Positions 1 through 8,985 of a DNA stretch of 64,000 bases are shown here, in pieces (the stretch's first letter is position 1; each line of letters starts with the position of its first letter). This stretch comes from Nitrospirota bacterium (GTDB lineage Bacteria > Nitrospirota > Nitrospiria > 2-01-FULL-66-17). Position numbers and translations under genes: made by a program. The notes under the pieces are model-generated. The model was not told where the DNA came from, did not search any database, and worked only from the letters and a program-made list of their open reading frames with translations. The stretch lies in NCBI GenBank assembly GCA_049325335.1, contig JBMOMC010000001.1, positions 64,001 to 128,000 on the forward strand, in the 5' to 3' direction.

Positions 1-3
1 CTC

Positions 4-810
4 GTGTTAGCCCCCACGCTGTGGAATCAGGGCGCGCGGCGGATCGACTACCTCGTGGCCACGCACCCGCAGCTTGACCACATCGGCGGGCTGGCGTTCG
101 TGGCGGATCGCTTTCCGATCGGCGAGGCCTGGATCAACGGCCGCCGACCCGACACCCGGGCGGCCCAGGCGTTCGACGCGGCCCTCACCGGACGCGGCGT
201 GCCGACGTCCGTTGTTCCCCGCGCACAACCCCTCTGGATCGACGCGGTCCGCGTCTGGCGCGTGAATCCCTTGGCCGAGGCGCCGTTCACCCCGTTGCCC
301 CATCGCGCGAGCGACAATGATCGGTCGATCGTCGTGCGCGTGGAATACGGCCGCGCCTCATTTCTGTTGACCGGCGACGTGGAATCCGAGGGCGAGCGCC
401 TCATGGCGGCCGCTGACCCGCGGTGGCATCTGCTGCGCAGCACCGTGTTGAAGATCCCCCACCACGGCAGCCGGGGCGCGCTAGACCCCGACTTCCTCCG
501 GGCGGTGGCGCCCAAAGTTGGCGTGATCTCGGTCGGCGCCACGAACACCTACGGTCACCCAGACCCGAAAACGCTCAAAGCGTATTCGCGCCTCAAGACC
601 GCGCTGTTTCGAACCGACGTGGACGGCGCGATCACGATGGTCACCGACGGCACGCGGCTCCACGTGTTCCGCTACGAAGATCTGACCGCGGCGAACGTGG
701 CCTGGGACCGCGGCATGGCGGAGGCGGAATGGCGCAACATCCGCACCGCGCTCGGTTCACCGACTCCGGCGTTGTCGCTGGATCTGACGAAGACCGAACC
801 GCCGCTGTAG
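4..810 (+). CDS. comEC: ComEC/Rec2 competence protein, C-terminal metallo-beta-lactamase domain (5' truncated by window edge)
   Basis: THPQLDHIGG, ND.SIV, LLTGD and KIPHHGS...N.YGHP motifs of the ComEC MBL domain. Confidence 0.9.
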   Translation: MLAPTLWNQGARRIDYLVATHPQLDHIGGLAFVADRFPIGEAWINGRRPDTRAAQAFDAALTGRGVPTSVVPRAQPLWIDAVRVWRVNPLAEAPFTPLPHRASDNDRSIVVRVEYGRASFLLTGDVESEGERLMAAADPRWHLLRSTVLKIPHHGSRGALDPDFLRAVAPKVGVISVGATNTYGHPDPKTLKAYSRLKTALFRTDVDGAITMVTDGTRLHVFRYEDLTAANVAWDRGMAEAEWRNIRTALGSPTPALSLDLTKTEPPL

Positions 811-838
811 GTCGGGGCACGGCATGTCTTGCCCCGAC
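807..838 (+). repeat. GTAG-led REP-like hairpin between convergent genes
   Basis: GTAG followed by gtcggggca...tgccccgac (9-bp arms); the GTAG contains the comEC stop codon. Confidence 0.55.
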
Positions 839-845
839 AGATGTG

Positions 846-1640
846 TTACCGGGGCTGGGACTGGTAGATCTTCAGCGCCTCGGGCATCCAGCCCTCGATC
901 CGCGCGATGCGGGTCCGATCGCTGGGGTGGGTGGAGAGGAACTCCGGCGGCGCGCCGTCCTTGCCTTGCTCCATGCGCGTCCAAAATTCGATGGACTGGC
1001 GCGGGTCGTAGCCGGCCTTGGCCATCAACAACAAACCGATTTCATCGGCTTCGGACTCCTGGTGTCGGCTGAACGGCAGGAGTACGCCCACCCCGCTGCC
1101 GATGCCGAACGCTTGTTCGACCTGTTTCTCGGTCTCCGGATTCCCGCCGCCGAAGATGATCCCCGCGGTCTTGCCGGCGACATCAGCCAACTGCCCCGTG
1201 GACATCCGCTCCGCGCCGTGACGCGCCAGCGCGTGCGCGATCTCGTGCCCCATCACCACGGCTAAGCCCGCCTCGTCTTTGGTGAACGGTAGAATGCCGG
1301 TGTAGACCACCACCTTGCCGCCTGGCAGGCAGAACGCGTTGGGCGTCTTGTCCTCAACCAGGTTGAACTCCCATTGATAGTTTGGTCGATCCGCCGCCTT
1401 GGCGATCCGGTCGCCCACACGCCGAACCATCGCGGCCGCCGCGACGTCGGCGCTGAGTGTGGATGACTTGAGGGTTTTCTTATACGCCTCCGCGCCGAGA
1501 CCCAGTTCTTGCTCGTCGGAGATCAGAATCAATTGATGTCGCCCCGTGAGCGGGACGGTTTGGCAGGCGGCCAACAATAGCGCCAACGCGCACGCCACGG
1601 TCACCCACCAGCGGTCGATCGCGGTCATACCCGACTCCAT
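846..1640 (-). CDS. M48 family Zn metallopeptidase, lipoprotein
   Basis: LAAC lipobox, NAFCLPGG, HEIAH, FSRHQESEAD, FLSTHP. Confidence 0.93.
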   Translation of the reverse strand: MESGMTAIDRWWVTVACALALLLAACQTVPLTGRHQLILISDEQELGLGAEAYKKTLKSSTLSADVAAAAMVRRVGDRIAKAADRPNYQWEFNLVEDKTPNAFCLPGGKVVVYTGILPFTKDEAGLAVVMGHEIAHALARHGAERMSTGQLADVAGKTAGIIFGGGNPETEKQVEQAFGIGSGVGVLLPFSRHQESEADEIGLLLMAKAGYDPRQSIEFWTRMEQGKDGAPPEFLSTHPSDRTRIARIEGWMPEALKIYQSQPR

Positions 1641-1719
1641 TCGGTTGGCGGATTATGGCACAGGGGGATGGATCGTCTCAACCCCAAGGCGCAGGAATCC
1701 TGCGTCAACGACGGACCGC
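1591..1719. repeat. 129-bp direct repeat, copy 1 (M48 5' end plus upstream region)
   Basis: Aligns without gaps to 4092-4220; 3 mismatches in the first 80 nt. Confidence 0.92.
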
Positions 1720-1765
1720 TGCGAGAGGGACGGCAAACTGTCCAGTCAATGACCGGACCATCGCG

Positions 1766-2208
1766 TTACCCCGGAATCTCAGATTCGACCAGGTGCACAA
1801 GCAGAGAGAGAGATTCTTGCCAGCCGAACACGCCTCCGGTGAAATGGCGCCGGGTATGCCTTCGTGCACGATGTGCACCTCGGTTCCGCAGAACACCTTC
1901 TTCAACGAGGCCGTTGTCTGCAGTTCCCCGGGCATGTTCGGATCATCGAATGCGTCCGTGTGACGAATGCGTTCATTGGGTATCAATTCAAGATAGGTTC
2001 CACCGAACGAATGGCTGTGGCCGGTCGTGAAGTTGGTGAACGACATCTTGTAGGTTCCGACGACTTTGGCCTCGAGATGATGAACTCTTCCCGTGAAGCC
2101 GTTCGGAGGAAGCCATTTGGTCATGGCGTCGGCATCAAGGAACGCCCGATAAATTCTCTCCGGCGTCGCACGAAGAACTCGGTGGAGACGGATGGTGTTC
2201 GTAGGCAT
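1766..2208 (-). pseudogene. SRPBCC/AHSA1-like protein, frameshifted near the C-terminus
   Basis: Starts MPTNTIRLHRVLRATPER. After ...PEAC the family-typical tail GWQESLSLLVHLVESEIPG* continues in another frame and ends at TAA 1766-1768. Confidence 0.8.
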
Positions 2209-2228
2209 GATTACCACTCCTTTCGATG

Positions 2229-2837
2229 TCACCCTGGCCGTTTGAAACCTTTGCGTGCGCGCTCAACTTTGGCTCTGATCACACAATCCGCGACATGATC
2301 GTTGATCAGCCCCATGGCTTGCATGAAGGCATACACCGTGGTGGGACCGACGAATTTCCAGCCCAGTTTTTTCAGATCTTTCGACAACGCCAGCGATTCC
2401 GCCGAGGTCGAGACGGTCTGCGGTTCCGGAAGTTGTTTCATGTCAGGTTCGTAACGCCAGATGAAGGCGGCCAGCGAGCCTTCCCGTTTGACGAGTTCCC
2501 GGGTCTGCCGAGCATTATTGACGACGGCCTCGATCTTGCCGCGGTGGCGGACGATCCCTTCGTCTTTGAGCAGACGATCGAGGTCGCGCTGGGTGAAGCG
2601 CGCAATCCTGTCAAAATCGAGATCATGGAAGGCGGCGCGGAAATTCTCGCGCTTGGCGAGGATGGTGCGCCAACTCAGTCCGGATTGAAAACCCTCCAGA
2701 CTCAATTTCTCGAACAAACGATGATCATCGCTGACCGGAACCCCCCATTCAGCGTCATGATAGGCGAGAAACTCCGGTGCGGCACCGCACCAGCGGCAAC
2801 GTGACTTGCCGTCGGGACCGACGATCGTCGCGCTCAT
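2229..2837 (-). CDS. tag: DNA-3-methyladenine glycosylase I
   Basis: RCRWC, YHDAEWG, LEGFQSGLSW, FVGPTTVYAFMQAMG, NDH...C. Confidence 0.93.
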   Translation of the reverse strand: MSATIVGPDGKSRCRWCGAAPEFLAYHDAEWGVPVSDDHRLFEKLSLEGFQSGLSWRTILAKRENFRAAFHDLDFDRIARFTQRDLDRLLKDEGIVRHRGKIEAVVNNARQTRELVKREGSLAAFIWRYEPDMKQLPEPQTVSTSAESLALSKDLKKLGWKFVGPTTVYAFMQAMGLINDHVADCVIRAKVERARKGFKRPG

Positions 2838-2866
2838 GTGCTTGCTGTCCTCGGCTTGAAAGTGAC

Positions 2867-3152
2867 TCAGCTGAGCAGAAACTTCAGTCGTTTATCGGCT
2901 TTTGACGGCGTGATTTCAAGAATTTCCGCGCTGACCACATTTTCCGCGTCAAACGGATCGTCGCTCACCCTGTGTTGAAGATCTGACAGCGACGTATTGT
3001 GTACCGTAATCCCACCGCCCGAATGAGGCTCAAGACTACCGACCAACAAAAATACGCCGTCGTCAAAACCCCGTTTGATCCATTCTTGGTGGCCTTCCAT
3101 GAATTGGTCCGCTTGGCCTTTTGCCAGAAAATTTCAGAAGTGCGATAAACCT
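2867..3152 (-). pseudogene. YciI-like small protein, start codon lost and frameshifted
   Basis: Upstream frame reads (AGG)FIALLKFSG, then shifts into GQADQFMEGHQEWIKRGFDDGVFLLVGSL...DDPF. Confidence 0.65.
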
Positions 3153-3174
3153 AGGATTTATTCTCCGATCAAAT

Positions 3175-3444
3175 TTGAAGGCGCGCCCGCGTCATCATTC
3201 TGGTACGGCCCATCGAACGCGGAGAGGTCCACGTCGTGATCGATGAGATCGTTGAGGGTGTACTCGAAGATACCTGGGAGGAGATGGCGATCGAGGGGGG
3301 CGTGCGAGCAACTGACCTTGCTCGTAGGAGTAGTCCTTGCGTATCGCCATCCGAACCTTCTTCGCCGCCTGAGCGGTCTGCGGGGGGGCACTAGCCAGAT
3401 GCGGTATTATAGCGGATTATAGACTCTTTCTACAGACGCAAGGC
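3175..3444 (-). mobile_element. IS1182-family-like remnant: left end plus frameshifted transposase N-terminus
   Basis: ATG at 3350 reads MAIRKDYSYEQGQLLA, shifts into LDRHLLPGIFEYTLNDLIDHDVDLSAFDGPYQNDDAGAP, then is truncated; end-like TCTGTAGAAAGAGTC near 3422-3436. Confidence 0.65.
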
Positions 3445-3451
3445 TTAGGCA

Positions 3452-3916
3452 CTACTCGCCTCCTTGTTGGCTTTGCCTCTCCTTGAGAAGCCAATAAGTT
3501 GCTCCCAAGGCCAGTGTGGCGGCCGCGAGGCCAAATACCTGACCCTCAGTGACTGTATGCAAATCCAAAATTATAAACTTTCGCGCAAGGGCCAAAAGAG
3601 CAATAAGCAGCACAACAGAAGTTTGGATGAAGCTCTGCTGACGCGTGACCACGTACTGCAGCGTGTGGTTGAACTCCAACGCAATCAGGAGAGTCATGAT
3701 TTCGCCAAAGACGGTCTGAAATACATCGTGATCCAACGGGTCAAGGGCACCCAGAATGAGGCCGGAGACCACCGTAAAGGTGAGTCGGAAGAGCGCCACT
3801 ACGACAATTAGCCCGATGATCAGAGTCAAGATCAGGGCGACAACGCCCTCGAACTTCTGGTAGTAGGTCAGGAGCGGCCAGTCATCCTGCAGACGCCTGA
3901 ATCCAGATAATGACAT
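3452..3916 (-). CDS. PsiE-family membrane protein (cassette-like)
   Basis: Four hydrophobic helices, LLIALEF and ALARKFIILD motifs; flanked by GTAAGGCAC and GTGCCTAA. Confidence 0.8.
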   Translation of the reverse strand: MSLSGFRRLQDDWPLLTYYQKFEGVVALILTLIIGLIVVVALFRLTFTVVSGLILGALDPLDHDVFQTVFGEIMTLLIALEFNHTLQYVVTRQQSFIQTSVVLLIALLALARKFIILDLHTVTEGQVFGLAAATLALGATYWLLKERQSQQGGE

Positions 3917-3940
3917 GGTGATCTTCCCCTCTCGCCTGCG

Positions 3941-3979
3941 GTGCCTTACTACAATTCGACATCCGACTTATTTCGACAA
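3941..3979 (-). other. attI-like recombination site, copy A
   Basis: ttgtcgaaataagtcggatgtcgaattgta-GTAAGGCAC; 29/32 identical to 7299-7330; lies directly before the PsiE-like gene. Confidence 0.6.
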
Positions 3980-3984
3980 TCCAA

Positions 3985-4062
3985 GTGAAAAACAGGGTCA
4001 GAGTGCTTTTTCACGTCGTGCTGGATTCCGCCCTACCTAAAAAAAGTACCCTGAGCCACCCC
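3985..4062. repeat. Small inverted-repeat element (GGGTCAGAGTGCTTTTT ... AAAAAGTACCCTGAGCC)
   Basis: 17-nt arms at 3995-4011 and 4041-4057, 14/17 complementary; abuts the truncated M48 copy. Confidence 0.55.
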
Positions 4063-4091
4063 AGTTTCTCCCAAACAACAACGCCGCCGCA

Positions 4092-4220
4092 CACGCCACG
4101 GTCACCCACCAGCGGTCGATTGCGGTCATACCCGACTCCATTCGGTCAGCGGATTATGGCACAGGGGGATGGTTCGGCTCAAGCCCGAGACGGCGAAATC
4201 TCGCGTCAACGATAGACCGC
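4092..4220. repeat. 129-bp direct repeat, copy 2, containing a truncated M48 gene start
   Basis: Minus strand encodes MESGMTAIDRWWVTVACAAALL and then breaks off. Confidence 0.92.
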
Positions 4221-4459
4221 GTTGCGATGAGCGGCCGATGCGATCTCGACCCTTCGTTCGGCGTCGTCGATGACGTACAACATCCGATAATCACCCACTC
4301 GGACTCTATACCCTTCACGGCCTTGGAGTTTCTTCCCCGTCACGGGGCGCGGATTGAATTTCAAAGAAAGGAGCTGATCGACAACCTTGTCGTGGATTCT
4401 TCGAGGAAGTGTGTCGCGTCTTTTTCCGCCGTTCGCTTGAGAACAACGGCGTACGGCAT
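4206..4459 (-). pseudogene. RelE/ParE-family toxin, 1-nt frameshift
   Basis: MPYAVVLKRTAEK, shift near 4418, then DTLPRRIHDKVVDQLLSLKFNPRPVTGKKLQGREGYRVRVGDYRMLYVIDDAERRVEIASAAHRNAVYR*; span is 254 nt. Confidence 0.85.
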
Positions 4460-4668
4460 TAACGCGTCTTTCGAGGCCGGTGAGCGAGGGAGTCGTCGAG
4501 CAAGTGGGACCGCTCCTTCACCTGCTGATCGAGACTCGCCAGATCAATCAGGTCCTCTCGGAACTCCCGATCCGCGAGCATGCGTTCCATAGTCGCGGCG
4601 CGCTCCTTCTTAGACAGTGTGCGGAACGCGGTCTAAACAACCTCGGCGGTTGCGTCAACGGCAGTCAT
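4459..4668 (-). pseudogene. Antitoxin of the RelE pair, internal TAG
   Basis: MTAVDATAEVV*TAFRTLSKKERAATMERMLADREFREDLIDLA...; its stop overlaps the toxin start (TAATG); in-frame TAG at 4633-4635. Confidence 0.75.
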
Positions 4669-4879
4669 CGTCGTCATCCCGATTTTGTAAGAACCTCGCG
4701 GCCCACGGTCGGATTCCCGACGAACGGCACGATGTCCCACACACCTCGGACCGGATGGACACGGAGTGTCGCAACTCTCTAGCCCCATCCCGGTCGGCCC
4801 CGCTGCGTTCAGACTTCGACGTGGTGTCGCCTGTACAACCGCACGGCGACGAGAAACTACGCTCCGACCCCAATTTTCT

Positions 4880-5998
4880 TTACACCACCGCGACCTTCAC
4901 GCAGTGGATCGGCGGAAGCGAGTCGAACAGGCAGCCCCACTCCTCGCCGCCGTCTCGCCCCATCCAGAGCTGGCCGGTCGTGGTCCCGAAGTAGAGCGCG
5001 GGCGACTTGAGCTCGTCGATATCCATCGCGTCGCGCTGGACCGTGAAGAAGCTCTCTTTCTTGGGCAACCCCTTGGCGAGCCGCTTCCACGAGGCACCGC
5101 CATCCTCGCTGCGCCAGACCGCTGGTGCGCCGCTGGGACAGGTGCGCGTCGCCGGCTCGAGCGGCAGCACGTAGACCGTGTCGGCGTCGTGCGGGTGCAC
5201 CACGATCGGAAAGCCGAAGTCGGAGGGCAGCCCCTTGGCGATCGAGCGCCACGTCTTGCCGTAGTCGTCGCTGCGCAGGACCCCGATGTCCGGGCGCGGC
5301 CCACCGGGCCCATCCCACTCGGCCCAGCCGCCGTGGTTCTGCATGTAGAGCCGACCGGGCGCGTCCTTGTGGCGCGCGATCTTGTGCACGCACTGGCCAA
5401 ACTCGGGATAGGGATCAGGCGCGAAGCCGGCGCCGACGCCCTGGTTGGATGCCGTGAACGTCGTACCGCCGTCCTCGCTCAGGTAGTGGCCGCCGGTCGA
5501 AATGCCGAGGTGCACCCGATCCCCGTCGCGCAAGATCGTGTGCATGCAGAGCCCGCCGTTCCCGGGCTGCCACTTGCGGGCGTGGTCGTGGTTGCTGATG
5601 CCGGGAACCATCTCCCAGGAATCGCCGGCGTCGCTGCTCGTAAAGAGTGACGCCGGCTCGGTGCCGCACCACAGATCCTTCTTGTTGTCGCCCGCTTCGA
5701 GCGACCAAATGTTGGCGAGCGCGCGCCCGTCCTCCTTCGGAAAGGCGGGCGCCGACTTCGTCTCCTTGAACGTCTTCCCGAGATTGGTCGAGCGCAACAC
5801 CTTCATGCCGAAGAAGGGGTTGCAGCTCGAGGCGTAGAGGCGCGGTGTGCCGCGCGTGTCGATCAGCGCGGCGTAGACGGCCACCCCTGATCCGAACGGC
5901 CCACGCAGAGCGAACCGGCCCCGGGTCTTCGCCGACTCGGCGACGAACAGGCCCTTCTTGGTCCCGATGCAGAGAATGACGCGTTCCGACATGGTCAA
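4880..5998 (-). CDS. BNR/Asp-box repeat beta-propeller (sialidase-like/WD40-YVTN) protein
   Basis: Repeated S.D.G.TW boxes (SSDAGDSW, SEDGGTTF, SDDYGKTW, SEDGGASW); GTKKGLF start. Confidence 0.88.
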   Translation of the reverse strand: MTMSERVILCIGTKKGLFVAESAKTRGRFALRGPFGSGVAVYAALIDTRGTPRLYASSCNPFFGMKVLRSTNLGKTFKETKSAPAFPKEDGRALANIWSLEAGDNKKDLWCGTEPASLFTSSDAGDSWEMVPGISNHDHARKWQPGNGGLCMHTILRDGDRVHLGISTGGHYLSEDGGTTFTASNQGVGAGFAPDPYPEFGQCVHKIARHKDAPGRLYMQNHGGWAEWDGPGGPRPDIGVLRSDDYGKTWRSIAKGLPSDFGFPIVVHPHDADTVYVLPLEPATRTCPSGAPAVWRSEDGGASWKRLAKGLPKKESFFTVQRDAMDIDELKSPALYFGTTTGQLWMGRDGGEEWGCLFDSLPPIHCVKVAVV

Positions 5999-6282
5999 CC
6001 TCCTGAGATCGCGGGTAGTATCATGATAACGTCCCCTGGCGCCAACGCCGTATCGAGCCCTTCTAAGTCGCGCACGTGCGACGTGTTCACGAACAAGTTG
6101 ACGTGGCGCCGCACCGTCCCCGTCTCGTCGCAGACGCTCCGGTACAGCGATACGTGGCTCCGCTCGAGTTGCTCAAGAGCGGCACGCACGCTCGGGGCCG
6201 ACAGAACAAGCTCCGAGGCGCCCTCGCAGTAGGCACGCAGCGCCCCTGGAACATAGATCGTGATGGTCATAGCTCGATCCAT
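5995..6282 (-). CDS. MoaD/ThiS-family ubiquitin-like sulfur-carrier protein
   Basis: About 90 aa, VNLFVN, C-terminal ISGG; overlaps the start of the BNR gene. Confidence 0.9.
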   Translation of the reverse strand: MDRAMTITIYVPGALRAYCEGASELVLSAPSVRAALEQLERSHVSLYRSVCDETGTVRRHVNLFVNTSHVRDLEGLDTALAPGDVIMILPAISGG

Positions 6283-6387
6283 CGCGGAACAAAGCGCCGC
6301 CCGCTGACGGCGCTGCGGTCAATCGAGCAAAATGCCGCCATCCTCACGAATCAGACACCTTCCATATGTTCCAAGGGGGCATTGCCT

Positions 6388-6481
6388 TTCGAACGCTCGA
6401 CACTGAGCCGCCACGCATAGACAGAACGAGCGAAGCTAGTGGCCCTGCTGTCGAGAGGTCGGGTCCAGTGTGTTGTTATGC
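6388..6481 (-). other. Integron attC site (94 bp)
   Basis: R'' GCATAAC overlapping the stop codon, spacer AACAC, L'' ACTGGACC then CGAC; ...GCG, L' GCTCAGT, spacer, R' GTTCGAA. Confidence 0.8.
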
Positions 6482-7279
6482 CACAAGTTCACGAACATTT
6501 ACGTCAAACTCTCGTTCAAGGAAAGCAATGGTTTTTGGTTGGCCATCAAGAGACGCACGCACATGTGTGGTCGTGTAGATACCCGCCTTGGCCTTCCACT
6601 TAGCCTGACCGCGATCCACAGCGGCGACCCATTTTACTGGCGCAACATATTCACAGAGTGAATTTGACTCGGCATTATCGGACATCTTCTGACAGCGGAG
6701 GCCATGACCGAGTAGCGGCTTGCCCTTAATTGCTACCTCACGTATTGGTTTGGCACGATCAGTGAGAACGCCGATTCCGACAAAGCCGTGATTCTTCAGA
6801 TAGGCCGCCACAACATCGCCTTTTTGAAACCCGAGCATTGCATCGCGCCAACGGATGCCTTGACCGGCCGAGATAAAACCAAGCTCCCTGTAATCGTCCC
6901 AGTTTCGGTGTGACCCCTCACCAACGTTGTAGTAGTAGATCCCAGACTGATAATCAAACCCCGAAAGTTCGAGGTGCATTGTGTTGTGGGGTCTGAAATT
7001 CTCCGAATAGTGCCCGGAGGAAACATTTGTCAGTTGTCGTCCAAGCTTCCATAACAACGTCTTTTCTACCAGGAACGCATCGTGTTCGGAGAGATCACGA
7101 GCGATCACGCGGATGATCGGTTTGAGCCCGGCCTTGTGTATCGCCGCGATACGGCGAGCTTTTTCCGAGTCTGACGTATCTGACAGGTGTGTGTCTTTTC
7201 GGGAGCCTCTACCCTTGCCAAAATAAAACTCTTCAAGGTTGCGAGGATCAATGTAAACGTAGACGTAGAAATTGTTCAC
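6476..7279 (-). CDS. GIY-YIG (LEM-3-like) nuclease with a C-terminal EVE/PUA-like domain; gene cassette
   Basis: FYVYVYIDPR...FYFGKG.GSR N-terminus; C-terminal RNWDDY..LGFISAGQG...GDVVAAYLK..GFVGIG; codon usage visibly more A/T-rich than the core genes. Confidence 0.75.
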   Translation of the reverse strand: MNNFYVYVYIDPRNLEEFYFGKGRGSRKDTHLSDTSDSEKARRIAAIHKAGLKPIIRVIARDLSEHDAFLVEKTLLWKLGRQLTNVSSGHYSENFRPHNTMHLELSGFDYQSGIYYYNVGEGSHRNWDDYRELGFISAGQGIRWRDAMLGFQKGDVVAAYLKNHGFVGIGVLTDRAKPIREVAIKGKPLLGHGLRCQKMSDNAESNSLCEYVAPVKWVAAVDRGQAKWKAKAGIYTTTHVRASLDGQPKTIAFLEREFDVNVRELVA

Positions 7280-7292
7280 GGCTTCTTCTTAG

Positions 7293-7330
7293 GGCATAAC
7301 TACAATTCGACGTCCGAATGATTTCGACAA
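7293..7330 (-). other. attI-like recombination site, copy B
   Basis: ttgtcgaaatcattcggacgtcgaattgta-GTTATGCC; GTTATGCC is the exact complement of the cassette's R'' GGCATAAC. Confidence 0.7.
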
Positions 7331-7518
7331 ACCCAGCGCTCACAGCGTCCTAACCGCCCCGACGGTCCTGCGATGGGAAACATCACTCCCGTCAACAATA
7401 CAAAAATATTATTTTCATTCCGAGAGCTGGTCTACATGGGCACACGCCCGCCAGCATACCGATTTTGCTTGGCGTGATCAACCGCGATACGCGCGGCGGA
7501 ATACGGACGGGGTGGGGC

Positions 7519-8985
7519 TTACGGCCCGACGAGGCCGGCGAAAAGCGACGCGGAGGAAACCGCCCACTCGATGAACGGGCCGGGGTAGATGCCGAGGATC
7601 ACGGTGCCGGCGAGCGTGGCGAGGACCACGGCCTGCATGGACGCGGAGACCGGGATCGGGCGGCGGTCCGTGGGTTCGTTGATGTACATCTTCTTGACGA
7701 TGACGATGTAGTAGTACATCGAGATCACGATGTTGACCAACCCCACACACACCAACGCGATCAAACCTTGTTTCATGGCCGCGGCGAACACGTAGATCTT
7801 GGCGATAAAACCCGCGAACGGCGGCACGCCCGCCAGCGAGAGCAGAAAGACCAGCATCGCGGCGGCCAGGAACGGCGCGCGGCGGGCGAGACCACGATAG
7901 TCGTCGATCTTGTCGCTGCCGGTGAGGTTCGAGAAGACGATCACCACCGCGAACGCGCCCACGTTGGCCATCAGATACGCCAGCAGGTAAAAGAGCACCG
8001 CGTTGCCGCCCATTTGGCTCCCGGCGGCCAAGCCAATCAGGATATTGCCCATCTGCGCGATGCCGGAGTACGCAAGCATGCGCTTGATGTCAGTCTGCGC
8101 GATGGCCACGATGTTGCCGTAGGTCATGGACAGGGCCGCCATGCCGATCAACAACCACACCCACTCCGGCTTGAACTGCGCGAAGGTGGAGAAGAACACG
8201 CGCAGCACGATGGCCAGGGCCGCGGCCTTGGGCGCGATACCGAGGTACGCGGTGATCGGCGTGGGCGCGCCCTGATAAATGTCGGGAATCCAGTTGTGGA
8301 ACGGCACCGCGCCGAGCTTAAAGCCCAATCCCACGACCAGGCACAGAAAGCCGATGACCAGGCCGCCGGTCAGCACCGGCTTGGCCGCCGCGATCTCCGG
8401 GAAGATGATGGTCCCGGTTTCGCCGTAGATCAGGCTGATCCCGAAGACCATGATCGCGGCGGTGAACACGCTCAGCACGAAGAACTTCAGGCCCGCTTCG
8501 CTCGAGAACAGATTGTCTTCGCGCAGATACGCCACCAGGATATAGAACCCGAACGTGGAGAACTCGATGGTGATGAACATGGTCAGCAAATCGTTGGCGG
8601 AGGCCATGAACAACATGCCCAACGCAGACAGCAGGACCATGAGGTAATACTCGCCGCGGAACAGGACGATCCGCTTGATGTAGTCGAGCGAGGCCAGCAC
8701 GATCAGGATCGTGGACAGCACCACGATGATCTTGAAGAACACGGCGAACGGGTCGAGTACGAACGTCTGCTTGAACAACGCACCCTGCACGTCGTTGCCC
8801 CACATCCACGCCAGGCTCGCGAGCACGCCGCACAACCCGACCACGGTCACCCACGCGAGCGTGTTCTTGCTGACCTTGGGAAAACTGAAGTCCACGACCA
8901 GGACCACGCAGATCAGTCCCAGAAGGAGCAGCTCCGGAAGCAGGAACAGTAGGTCGCCCCATGTAAACGCGAGCGTAAATTCCAT
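7519..8985 (-). CDS. nuoN: NADH-quinone oxidoreductase subunit N
   Basis: EAGLKFF, FKLGAVPFH.W.PD.YQGAP, KRMLAYS, SLAGVPP. Confidence 0.96.
   Translation of the reverse strand: MEFTLAFTWGDLLFLLPELLLLGLICVVLVVDFSFPKVSKNTLAWVTVVGLCGVLASLAWMWGNDVQGALFKQTFVLDPFAVFFKIIVVLSTILIVLASLDYIKRIVLFRGEYYLMVLLSALGMLFMASANDLLTMFITIEFSTFGFYILVAYLREDNLFSSEAGLKFFVLSVFTAAIMVFGISLIYGETGTIIFPEIAAAKPVLTGGLVIGFLCLVVGLGFKLGAVPFHNWIPDIYQGAPTPITAYLGIAPKAAALAIVLRVFFSTFAQFKPEWVWLLIGMAALSMTYGNIVAIAQTDIKRMLAYSGIAQMGNILIGLAAGSQMGGNAVLFYLLAYLMANVGAFAVVIVFSNLTGSDKIDDYRGLARRAPFLAAAMLVFLLSLAGVPPFAGFIAKIYVFAAAMKQGLIALVCVGLVNIVISMYYYIVIVKKMYINEPTDRRPIPVSASMQAVVLATLAGTVILGIYPGPFIEWAVSSASLFAGLVGP

Follow-up and report, generated by a model that had tools for sequence, protein, structure and literature searches.

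Putative attI sites of a reverse integron, mostly without intI, dispersed in a Nitrospirota genome

Described systems and the two sites of the window

Reverse integrons (intI transcribed towards the cassettes), loss of intI, single attC sites lacking integron-integrases (SALINs), clusters of such sites (CALINs) and truncated attI copies in cassettes are already known. As described in the accessible text of the Treponema papers (PMC3607928, PMC7691350), the inverted-integrase integrons have the same layout as the Nitrospirota parent platform reported here. The accessible part of PMC3607928 gives one attI per integron and calls an array without intI static, whereas one Nitrospirota attI type occupies six places in one genome, mostly without intI. 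Here, we analyzed a 64,000-nucleotide window (contig JBMOMC010000001.1 of assembly GCA_049325335.1, positions 64,001 to 128,000) of a Nitrospirota bacterium, which carries two minus-strand copies of a 32-bp attI-like motif between nuoN and an M48 peptidase gene.

The SALINs and CALINs in the available parts of 10.1101/2022.09.11.507474 and PMC4889954 resemble the window in having one or few attC sites and no intI nearby. The former source describes SALINs with no other att site nearby and proposes insertion at ordinary secondary sites (attG); in the window, by contrast, an apparently true attI heads the cassette. PMC4889954, in its accessible text, lists four routes to CALINs and reports intI pseudogenes near only 5% of them. 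Because IntegronFinder matches only class 1-3 attI, and that study, as far as its available text states, counted pseudogenes only above 50% profile coverage, sites of the present kind and short intI remnants would have been missed. Xanthomonas integrons (10.1101/2025.06.18.660453, open sections) likewise show frequent frameshift, truncation or deletion of intI; these lie mostly at one locus (ilvD), with arrays usually identical per lesion, whereas the Nitrospirota sites lie at many loci and can differ in first cassette even where the lesion is shared. Delta-attI-type cassettes of classes 1 and 2 (PMC12901181, in the text available) also have a truncated attI out of its usual position that is still recombined by IntI; there it replaces attC inside a mobile array, whereas the Nitrospirota copies stand upstream of a gene at chromosomal sites. 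The open-access literature, searched without subscription journals and supplements (e.g., the attI alignments of PMC9668308), yielded no account of dispersed solo attI sites or of the Nitrospirota attI described here.

Positions below are those of the window. G000 is the source genome and C-numbers are its contigs; G001-G005 are relatives, and L-numbers are individual attI loci. A slash marks the crossover. The features that concern the two sites are as follows.

7299..7403, minus strand: site A, what is left of a reverse-integron platform, without integrase (attI core at 7357-7299; crossover G/TT between 7300 and 7299)
6476..7279, minus strand: GIY-YIG nuclease, cassette gene, candidate anti-phage gene (PF22945, E 6e-8; 50% GC)
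6388..6481, minus strand: attC belonging to the nuclease cassette (R'' GCATAAC ... R' GTTCGAA; no other attC was called on the minus strand of window 1-8000)
3948..3986, minus strand: site B, attI core only (crossover G/TA; profile E 3e-7)
3444..3916, minus strand: decayed cassette, with a PsiE-family gene at 3916-3452 (PF06146) and an altered inverse core GCCTAAG at 3450-3444
3161..3440, minus strand: N-terminal fragment of a transposase, at the place expected for the PsiE attC (an annotated transposase matches at E 3e-5, and a fragment in L097 at 61-67%)
3990..4073, no strand assigned: small repeated element abutting and truncating site B (84% over 68 bp to C37:13231-13296)

The motif had been noticed in a sequence-only reading at 3948-3979 and 7299-7330, and the two copies were indeed identical at 29/32 positions, with three mismatches; 100 shuffles gave no match. 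Homology extended beyond the 32 bp, reaching 105 bp at site A (to 7403) and about 39-43 bp at site B. That reading had further described a GTT-like crossover followed by one gene, with complementarity between the core and the 3' end of the gene, at both sites. At site A both points were correct: the crossover is G/TT, and the core GTTATGCC is exactly complementary to the inverse core GGCATAAC at 6482-6475, which contains the stop codon. At site B, however, the core is GTAAGGC rather than GTT, and the inverse core GCCTAAG is only 7/9 complementary over GTAAGGCAC.

Site A and the intI-linked attI of C40 were 87% identical over 61 bp; identity to L218 was 90.7% over 107 bp, and a profile built from independent metagenome loci matched site A at E 1e-14. 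The nuclease gene has the parts of a gene cassette, namely an R'' complementary to the upstream core, and L boxes and R' after the gene. The complete attC at 6481-6388, which the earlier description lacked, scored 40.9, as against 3 control matches above 33 in 4.1 Mb of reversed DNA. The scorer was home-made and trained on 15-16 sites of the same family, and the threshold of 33 was set after loosening the right-arm filter; an earlier setting with a threshold of 27 had overlooked the window attC and gave 50 matches (control, 26). A second cassette behind this attC was rejected because its inverse core was not found within 1500-6400, so the single cassette proposed earlier was borne out. The nuclease matched the PADLOC entries PDC-S11 (E 1.6e-30) and PD-T4-3 (E 1.8e-12); its GC content at third codon positions (GC3) was 0.53 versus 0.90 for nuoN, and one plasmid homologue was found. 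The locus thus has a single attC without intI nearby, as in a SALIN, but attI heads the cassette, and it falls short of the at least two attC sites of a CALIN. No intI adjoins either attI in the window, as it would in a complete integron, and all nine PF00589 matches of the genome lie outside the window, in agreement with the earlier statement that no tyrosine recombinase is encoded there. Site A is a candidate landing site that is probably still usable.

Site B is, to judge from its altered parts, a dead, decayed relic: the crossover reads GTA, a position at which 96/98 of the metagenome sites surveyed below have GTT; R'' is altered; and a transposase fragment has replaced the attC. No attC was found at this site, so the PsiE gene lacks an intact one. 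Among PsiE homologues, 54/119 end in GA, with a length fitting a stop inside R''; the window copy ends two residues early and in another frame, which may reflect decay of such a stop. No PsiE homologue was found in 300 other genomes of the phylum (E 1e-35), plasmids or viral contigs. The transposase fragment had no Pfam or NCBIfam match and is presumably IS1182-like, and we take the repeated element to resemble a miniature inverted-repeat transposable element (MITE) or a repetitive extragenic palindrome.

The parent reverse integron and its probable erosion

Six copies of the motif were found in G000, a count backed by a profile made from metagenome loci: two stand behind broken co-oriented intI genes with attC arrays, and intI is missing at four (C44, C39 and both window sites). 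The C40 copy is separated by ~165 bp from the co-oriented intI pseudogene that precedes it, and 8 attC sites were scored in the array behind it; the second broken platform spans the ends of C6 and C11 and has 2 attC sites. In G001 and G004, this attI is preceded by an unbroken co-oriented intI frame above the TIGR02249 cut-off, and in G005 by a 5'-truncated co-oriented intI. An IntI-family gene above that cut-off, co-oriented with and upstream of attI as in a reverse integron, was present at C40, G001:C43 and G004:C53. As the motif adjoins an integron integrase at C40, C11, G001:C43, G004:C53 and G005:C313, lying 143-167 bp downstream of intI and heading attC arrays, the 32-mer is the predicted attI of a reverse integron of this Nitrospirota lineage. 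Its earlier interpretation as a dispersed attI agrees with these results, but the divergent intI that had been expected at nuoN does not, since the parent integron is co-oriented. An origin as the end of an insertion sequence (IS) or MITE was not indicated either, as 6/6 copies end at the core and are followed by a different gene, although no IS database was searched. The motif was present in 20/301 genomes of the class (reversed control, 0), and 21/24 of the titled genome matches were Nitrospirota, with 2 Acidobacteria and 1 Zixibacteria. The reverse-type IntI (L010:1852-2150, L041) has an N-terminal extension of ~100 residues that is absent from divergent IntI, and the gene ahead of it in G000 and G001 is presumably pyruvate phosphate dikinase-like.

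A metagenome set of at least 120 loci, 80 with long flanks, was reduced by 22 loci with the same first cassette to 98 distinct sites. Near-full co-oriented intI occurred at 7 sites (two with split matches), a 5'-truncated gene represented by its 3' remnant at 21, and a gene cut by the locus end at 3; 31 sites had no intI in at least 600 bp, and 36 were too short. All 31 intI genes were co-oriented and none was divergent. Conservation ended at G/TT and was followed by variable cassettes, as expected of attI. With near-full intI at only 7/62 classifiable sites, the integrase-less condition is the usual state of sites with this attI. The 5' ends of platform homology form a series scattered from -727 to +4, which would fit stepwise erosion of the platform. 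The dispersal had been predicted correctly, but the copies look like whole platforms at different stages of erosion, not like uniform pads, and site B appears dead. A composite cassette produced by IntI, its crossover fixed at one point upstream of attI, was also considered and rejected, because the breakpoints scatter. An element-end motif, picked after viewing other loci, lay near solo breakpoints in 6/31 cases versus 23/647 tiles (p 0.001). A search of five loci with Rfam gave no match on the att sites.

Several single loci deserve mention here. IS-like or intron-like sequence is inserted at or just upstream of attI in L098:121-145, L065 and L074, an internal intI fragment directly abuts attI in L065, and a group I intron match above the Rfam cut-off lies at L132:2705-2949. 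L100 has a tandem attI pair 562 bp apart, like the double arrangement of the window.

Possible reloading of solo sites and competing explanations

Among solo sites with enough DNA, 13/24 had attC within 1.6 kb downstream and 1 upstream. First cassettes were compared at 175 loci (duplicates kept), which included 28 groups with common upstream DNA. More than one first cassette occurred in 15/28 groups; 12/13 uniform groups were at least 98% identical and the remaining one was 92% identical. L166 and L169 were 98.9% identical over the 542 bp up to attI and divergent directly after it. Other clear cases were L146/L217 (97.5%), L125/L195 (95.7%), and L087/L101 and L063/L142 (over 1.4 kb). In addition, L168 had an extra 1.39 kb ending in attC ahead of the first cassette of L144. 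Because loci that share an intI loss often have a different first cassette, IntI may act in trans at these loci; for the window sites, such service is a possibility suggested by the loci elsewhere. There is precedent in that IntI1 recombines attI1 on a separate plasmid, according to the accessible parts of PMC9668308 and 10.64898/2026.03.17.712381.

The explanation that we favor, and consider rather likely, is that platforms were copied or re-acquired, intI was eroded, and attI was kept and reloaded by IntI from elsewhere. In the parent, intI, a spacer of ~150 bp, attI and the cassettes would follow one another on the same strand, possibly with a promoter in the spacer. Such platforms would have been duplicated or re-acquired at new chromosomal places, duplication being a plausible route, and then worn away from the 5' side via deletion and IS/MITE insertion. 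As attI lies behind intI, loss of intI need not remove attI. Those sites whose core is intact would remain substrates of IntI encoded elsewhere, so that the first cassette would keep changing.

Several results weigh against this explanation. No attC was found at 11/24 solo sites, and 0/5 genomes chosen because of their solo sites gave an IntI match. G000 has a single intact IntI (C38, TIGR02249 495 bits), which belongs to a separate divergent integron and shares 58% identity with the reverse type; its attI is a different one. Solo sites also exist for the divergent-type attI (2/6 copies), so the reverse orientation is not required. In the nuclease attC, the R-box-paired fold (-10.7 kcal/mol; minimum free energy, -13.8 kcal/mol; z -0.09) lies 3 kcal/mol above the minimum and is no better than shuffles. 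No sigma-70 promoter-like site was found upstream of site A, and the promoter and terminator scan remained at chance level. The listed joints of the probable source run (contigs only) included no excised or empty form of either window site. All surveys started from the attI core, so core retention is partly built in, and some groups of the cassette comparison share only 60-100 bp beyond the platform, so not all are orthologous loci. The arrays of C40 and C6/C11 differ although both copies lack the same 126 bp of the HxxR-LGH stretch (catalytic motifs), a result in favor of reloading; this deletion, however, lies in an assembly repeat, which makes the left/right pairing uncertain.

If each site died once its own intI was lost, the cassette differences would reflect independent intI losses or changes before the loss. 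The decay of site B, the 0/5 genomes with IntI, the 11/24 sites without attC and the weak fold of the nuclease attC would all suit such frozen relics, as would the same first cassette at a divergent-type solo site in G000 and G001; in Xanthomonas, the arrays are in most cases the same among strains sharing an intI lesion (10.1101/2025.06.18.660453, accessible text). However, pairs with the same remnant and 95-99% identity differ exactly at G/TT, L168 carries additional DNA ending in attC ahead of the first cassette of L144, and GTT is retained in 29/31 solo sites, so we regard this explanation as fairly unlikely. Less probable still is a mobile, integrase-free attI module that moves as a unit, the window sites never having been beside intI. 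Six loci with five unrelated flanks do have a sharp left end ~246 bp upstream of the motif and no intI, 80-130 bp separate nuoN from M48 in G002-G004, and site A has no trace of intI; but the -246 head was not detected in the window, breakpoints scatter from -727 to +4 without a common crossover, and 3' remnants of intI, differing in length, persist at many sites. We give hardly any weight to insertion at ordinary secondary sites (attG), the route proposed for SALINs: the nuclease cassette, with a single attC and no intI, is a SALIN by definition (10.1101/2022.09.11.507474, available text), yet the place of its insertion matches the intI-linked attI at 87% identity, which already contradicts attG, and the insertion-site sequence is absent from the locus in four relatives.

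Beyond the favored explanation of eroded and reloaded platforms, we tentatively raise the idea of a distributed integron, which is possible but rather doubtful. In this case, integrase-free attI sites would lie among core genes throughout the lineage, would partly have spread as a ~270-bp module and would be reloaded, often with defence genes, by any IntI, including non-cognate ones. If true, some of the SALINs and small CALINs would be accounted for. The results bear on the origin of cassettes far from any integrase, as the attI of this lineage is directly readable and most copies have no usable intI. If the sites are active in trans, the working unit would be the genome rather than the locus, and standard software would miss such units. 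With a named attI and two IntI types, service in trans can be tested by routine assay.

Some observations concern the cargo and the site types. An open reading frame (ORF)-less cassette is common to divergent and reverse arrays (94%), which counts in favor of reloading from elsewhere. Three of the four first-position proteins tested in G000 matched defence entries (PDC-S11/PD-T4-3, HEC-05 and LmuA), in line with the phage defence that integrons reportedly bear (10.1101/2024.07.02.601719). At C39:6702-6726 of G000 (L077), a 25-bp attI core immediately precedes a Lamassu-like operon (LmuA, E 1.5e-63), and within 1.5 kb no attC was called. Divergent-type solo attI sites, behind a 41-46-codon 5' intI remnant, lie at C1:699064-703796 of G000 (L229) and on C24 of G001 (L231); L229 is followed by 8 attC sites, with another copy of its first, ORF-less cassette further down (99.6%). 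The L-to-R spacing is 4 nt in the reverse-type attI versus 5-6 nt in the divergent type, a difference that was not relied on. The sharp -246 left end was seen in L098, L120, L124, L132, L187 and L203, with a 100-bp head that had no Rfam match; in L120 and L111, the module seems to follow the left half of an attC.

The nuoN-M48 locus

The distance from nuoN to the M48 peptidase gene is 80-130 bp in G002, G003 and G004 and 5.8 kb in G000, and in G001 the gap holds a two-gene pair, presumably antitoxin/PIN-like. The check for an empty locus in relatives that had been suggested earlier showed that both sites are absent from it there. The insert in G000 is layered and contains, besides the cassettes, the following features.

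4880..6282, minus strand: ThiS-family and BNR-repeat genes, passengers rather than cassettes (Pfam; no attC; GC3 0.74 and 0.90)
4206..4680, minus strand: broken antitoxin/RelE-type toxin pair (TIGR02385, E 4e-4, below cut-off; stops and frameshifts)
4074..4235, minus strand: copy of the M48 peptidase promoter and 5' end (162-bp direct repeat, 83%; with 1573-1734, it brackets the site-B block)
1705..3156, minus strand: small ORF, methyladenine glycosylase gene and truncated AHSA1 gene, passengers of the site-B block (Pfam; 80% paralogue at C1:527840-528770)

A contig of a relative from run X4 joins 1687 to 4202 and lacks the site-B block, which leaves that relative with the BNR and RelE part but not the surroundings of site B. 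Site B probably arrived later, within this 2.5-kb block. Another X4 contig, about 91% alike in nuoN, covers 7298-7403 and not the nuclease, and we read it as the same solo attI with other cargo; uncovered stretches in runs X2-X4 are by themselves no proof of absence. The gap as a whole (window 1685-7514 and orthologues) is an insertion hot spot, empty in three relatives and occupied by different toxin-antitoxin-like pairs in G001 and G000. At the start of the window, positions 1-810 hold a gene that we take to be ComEC-like.

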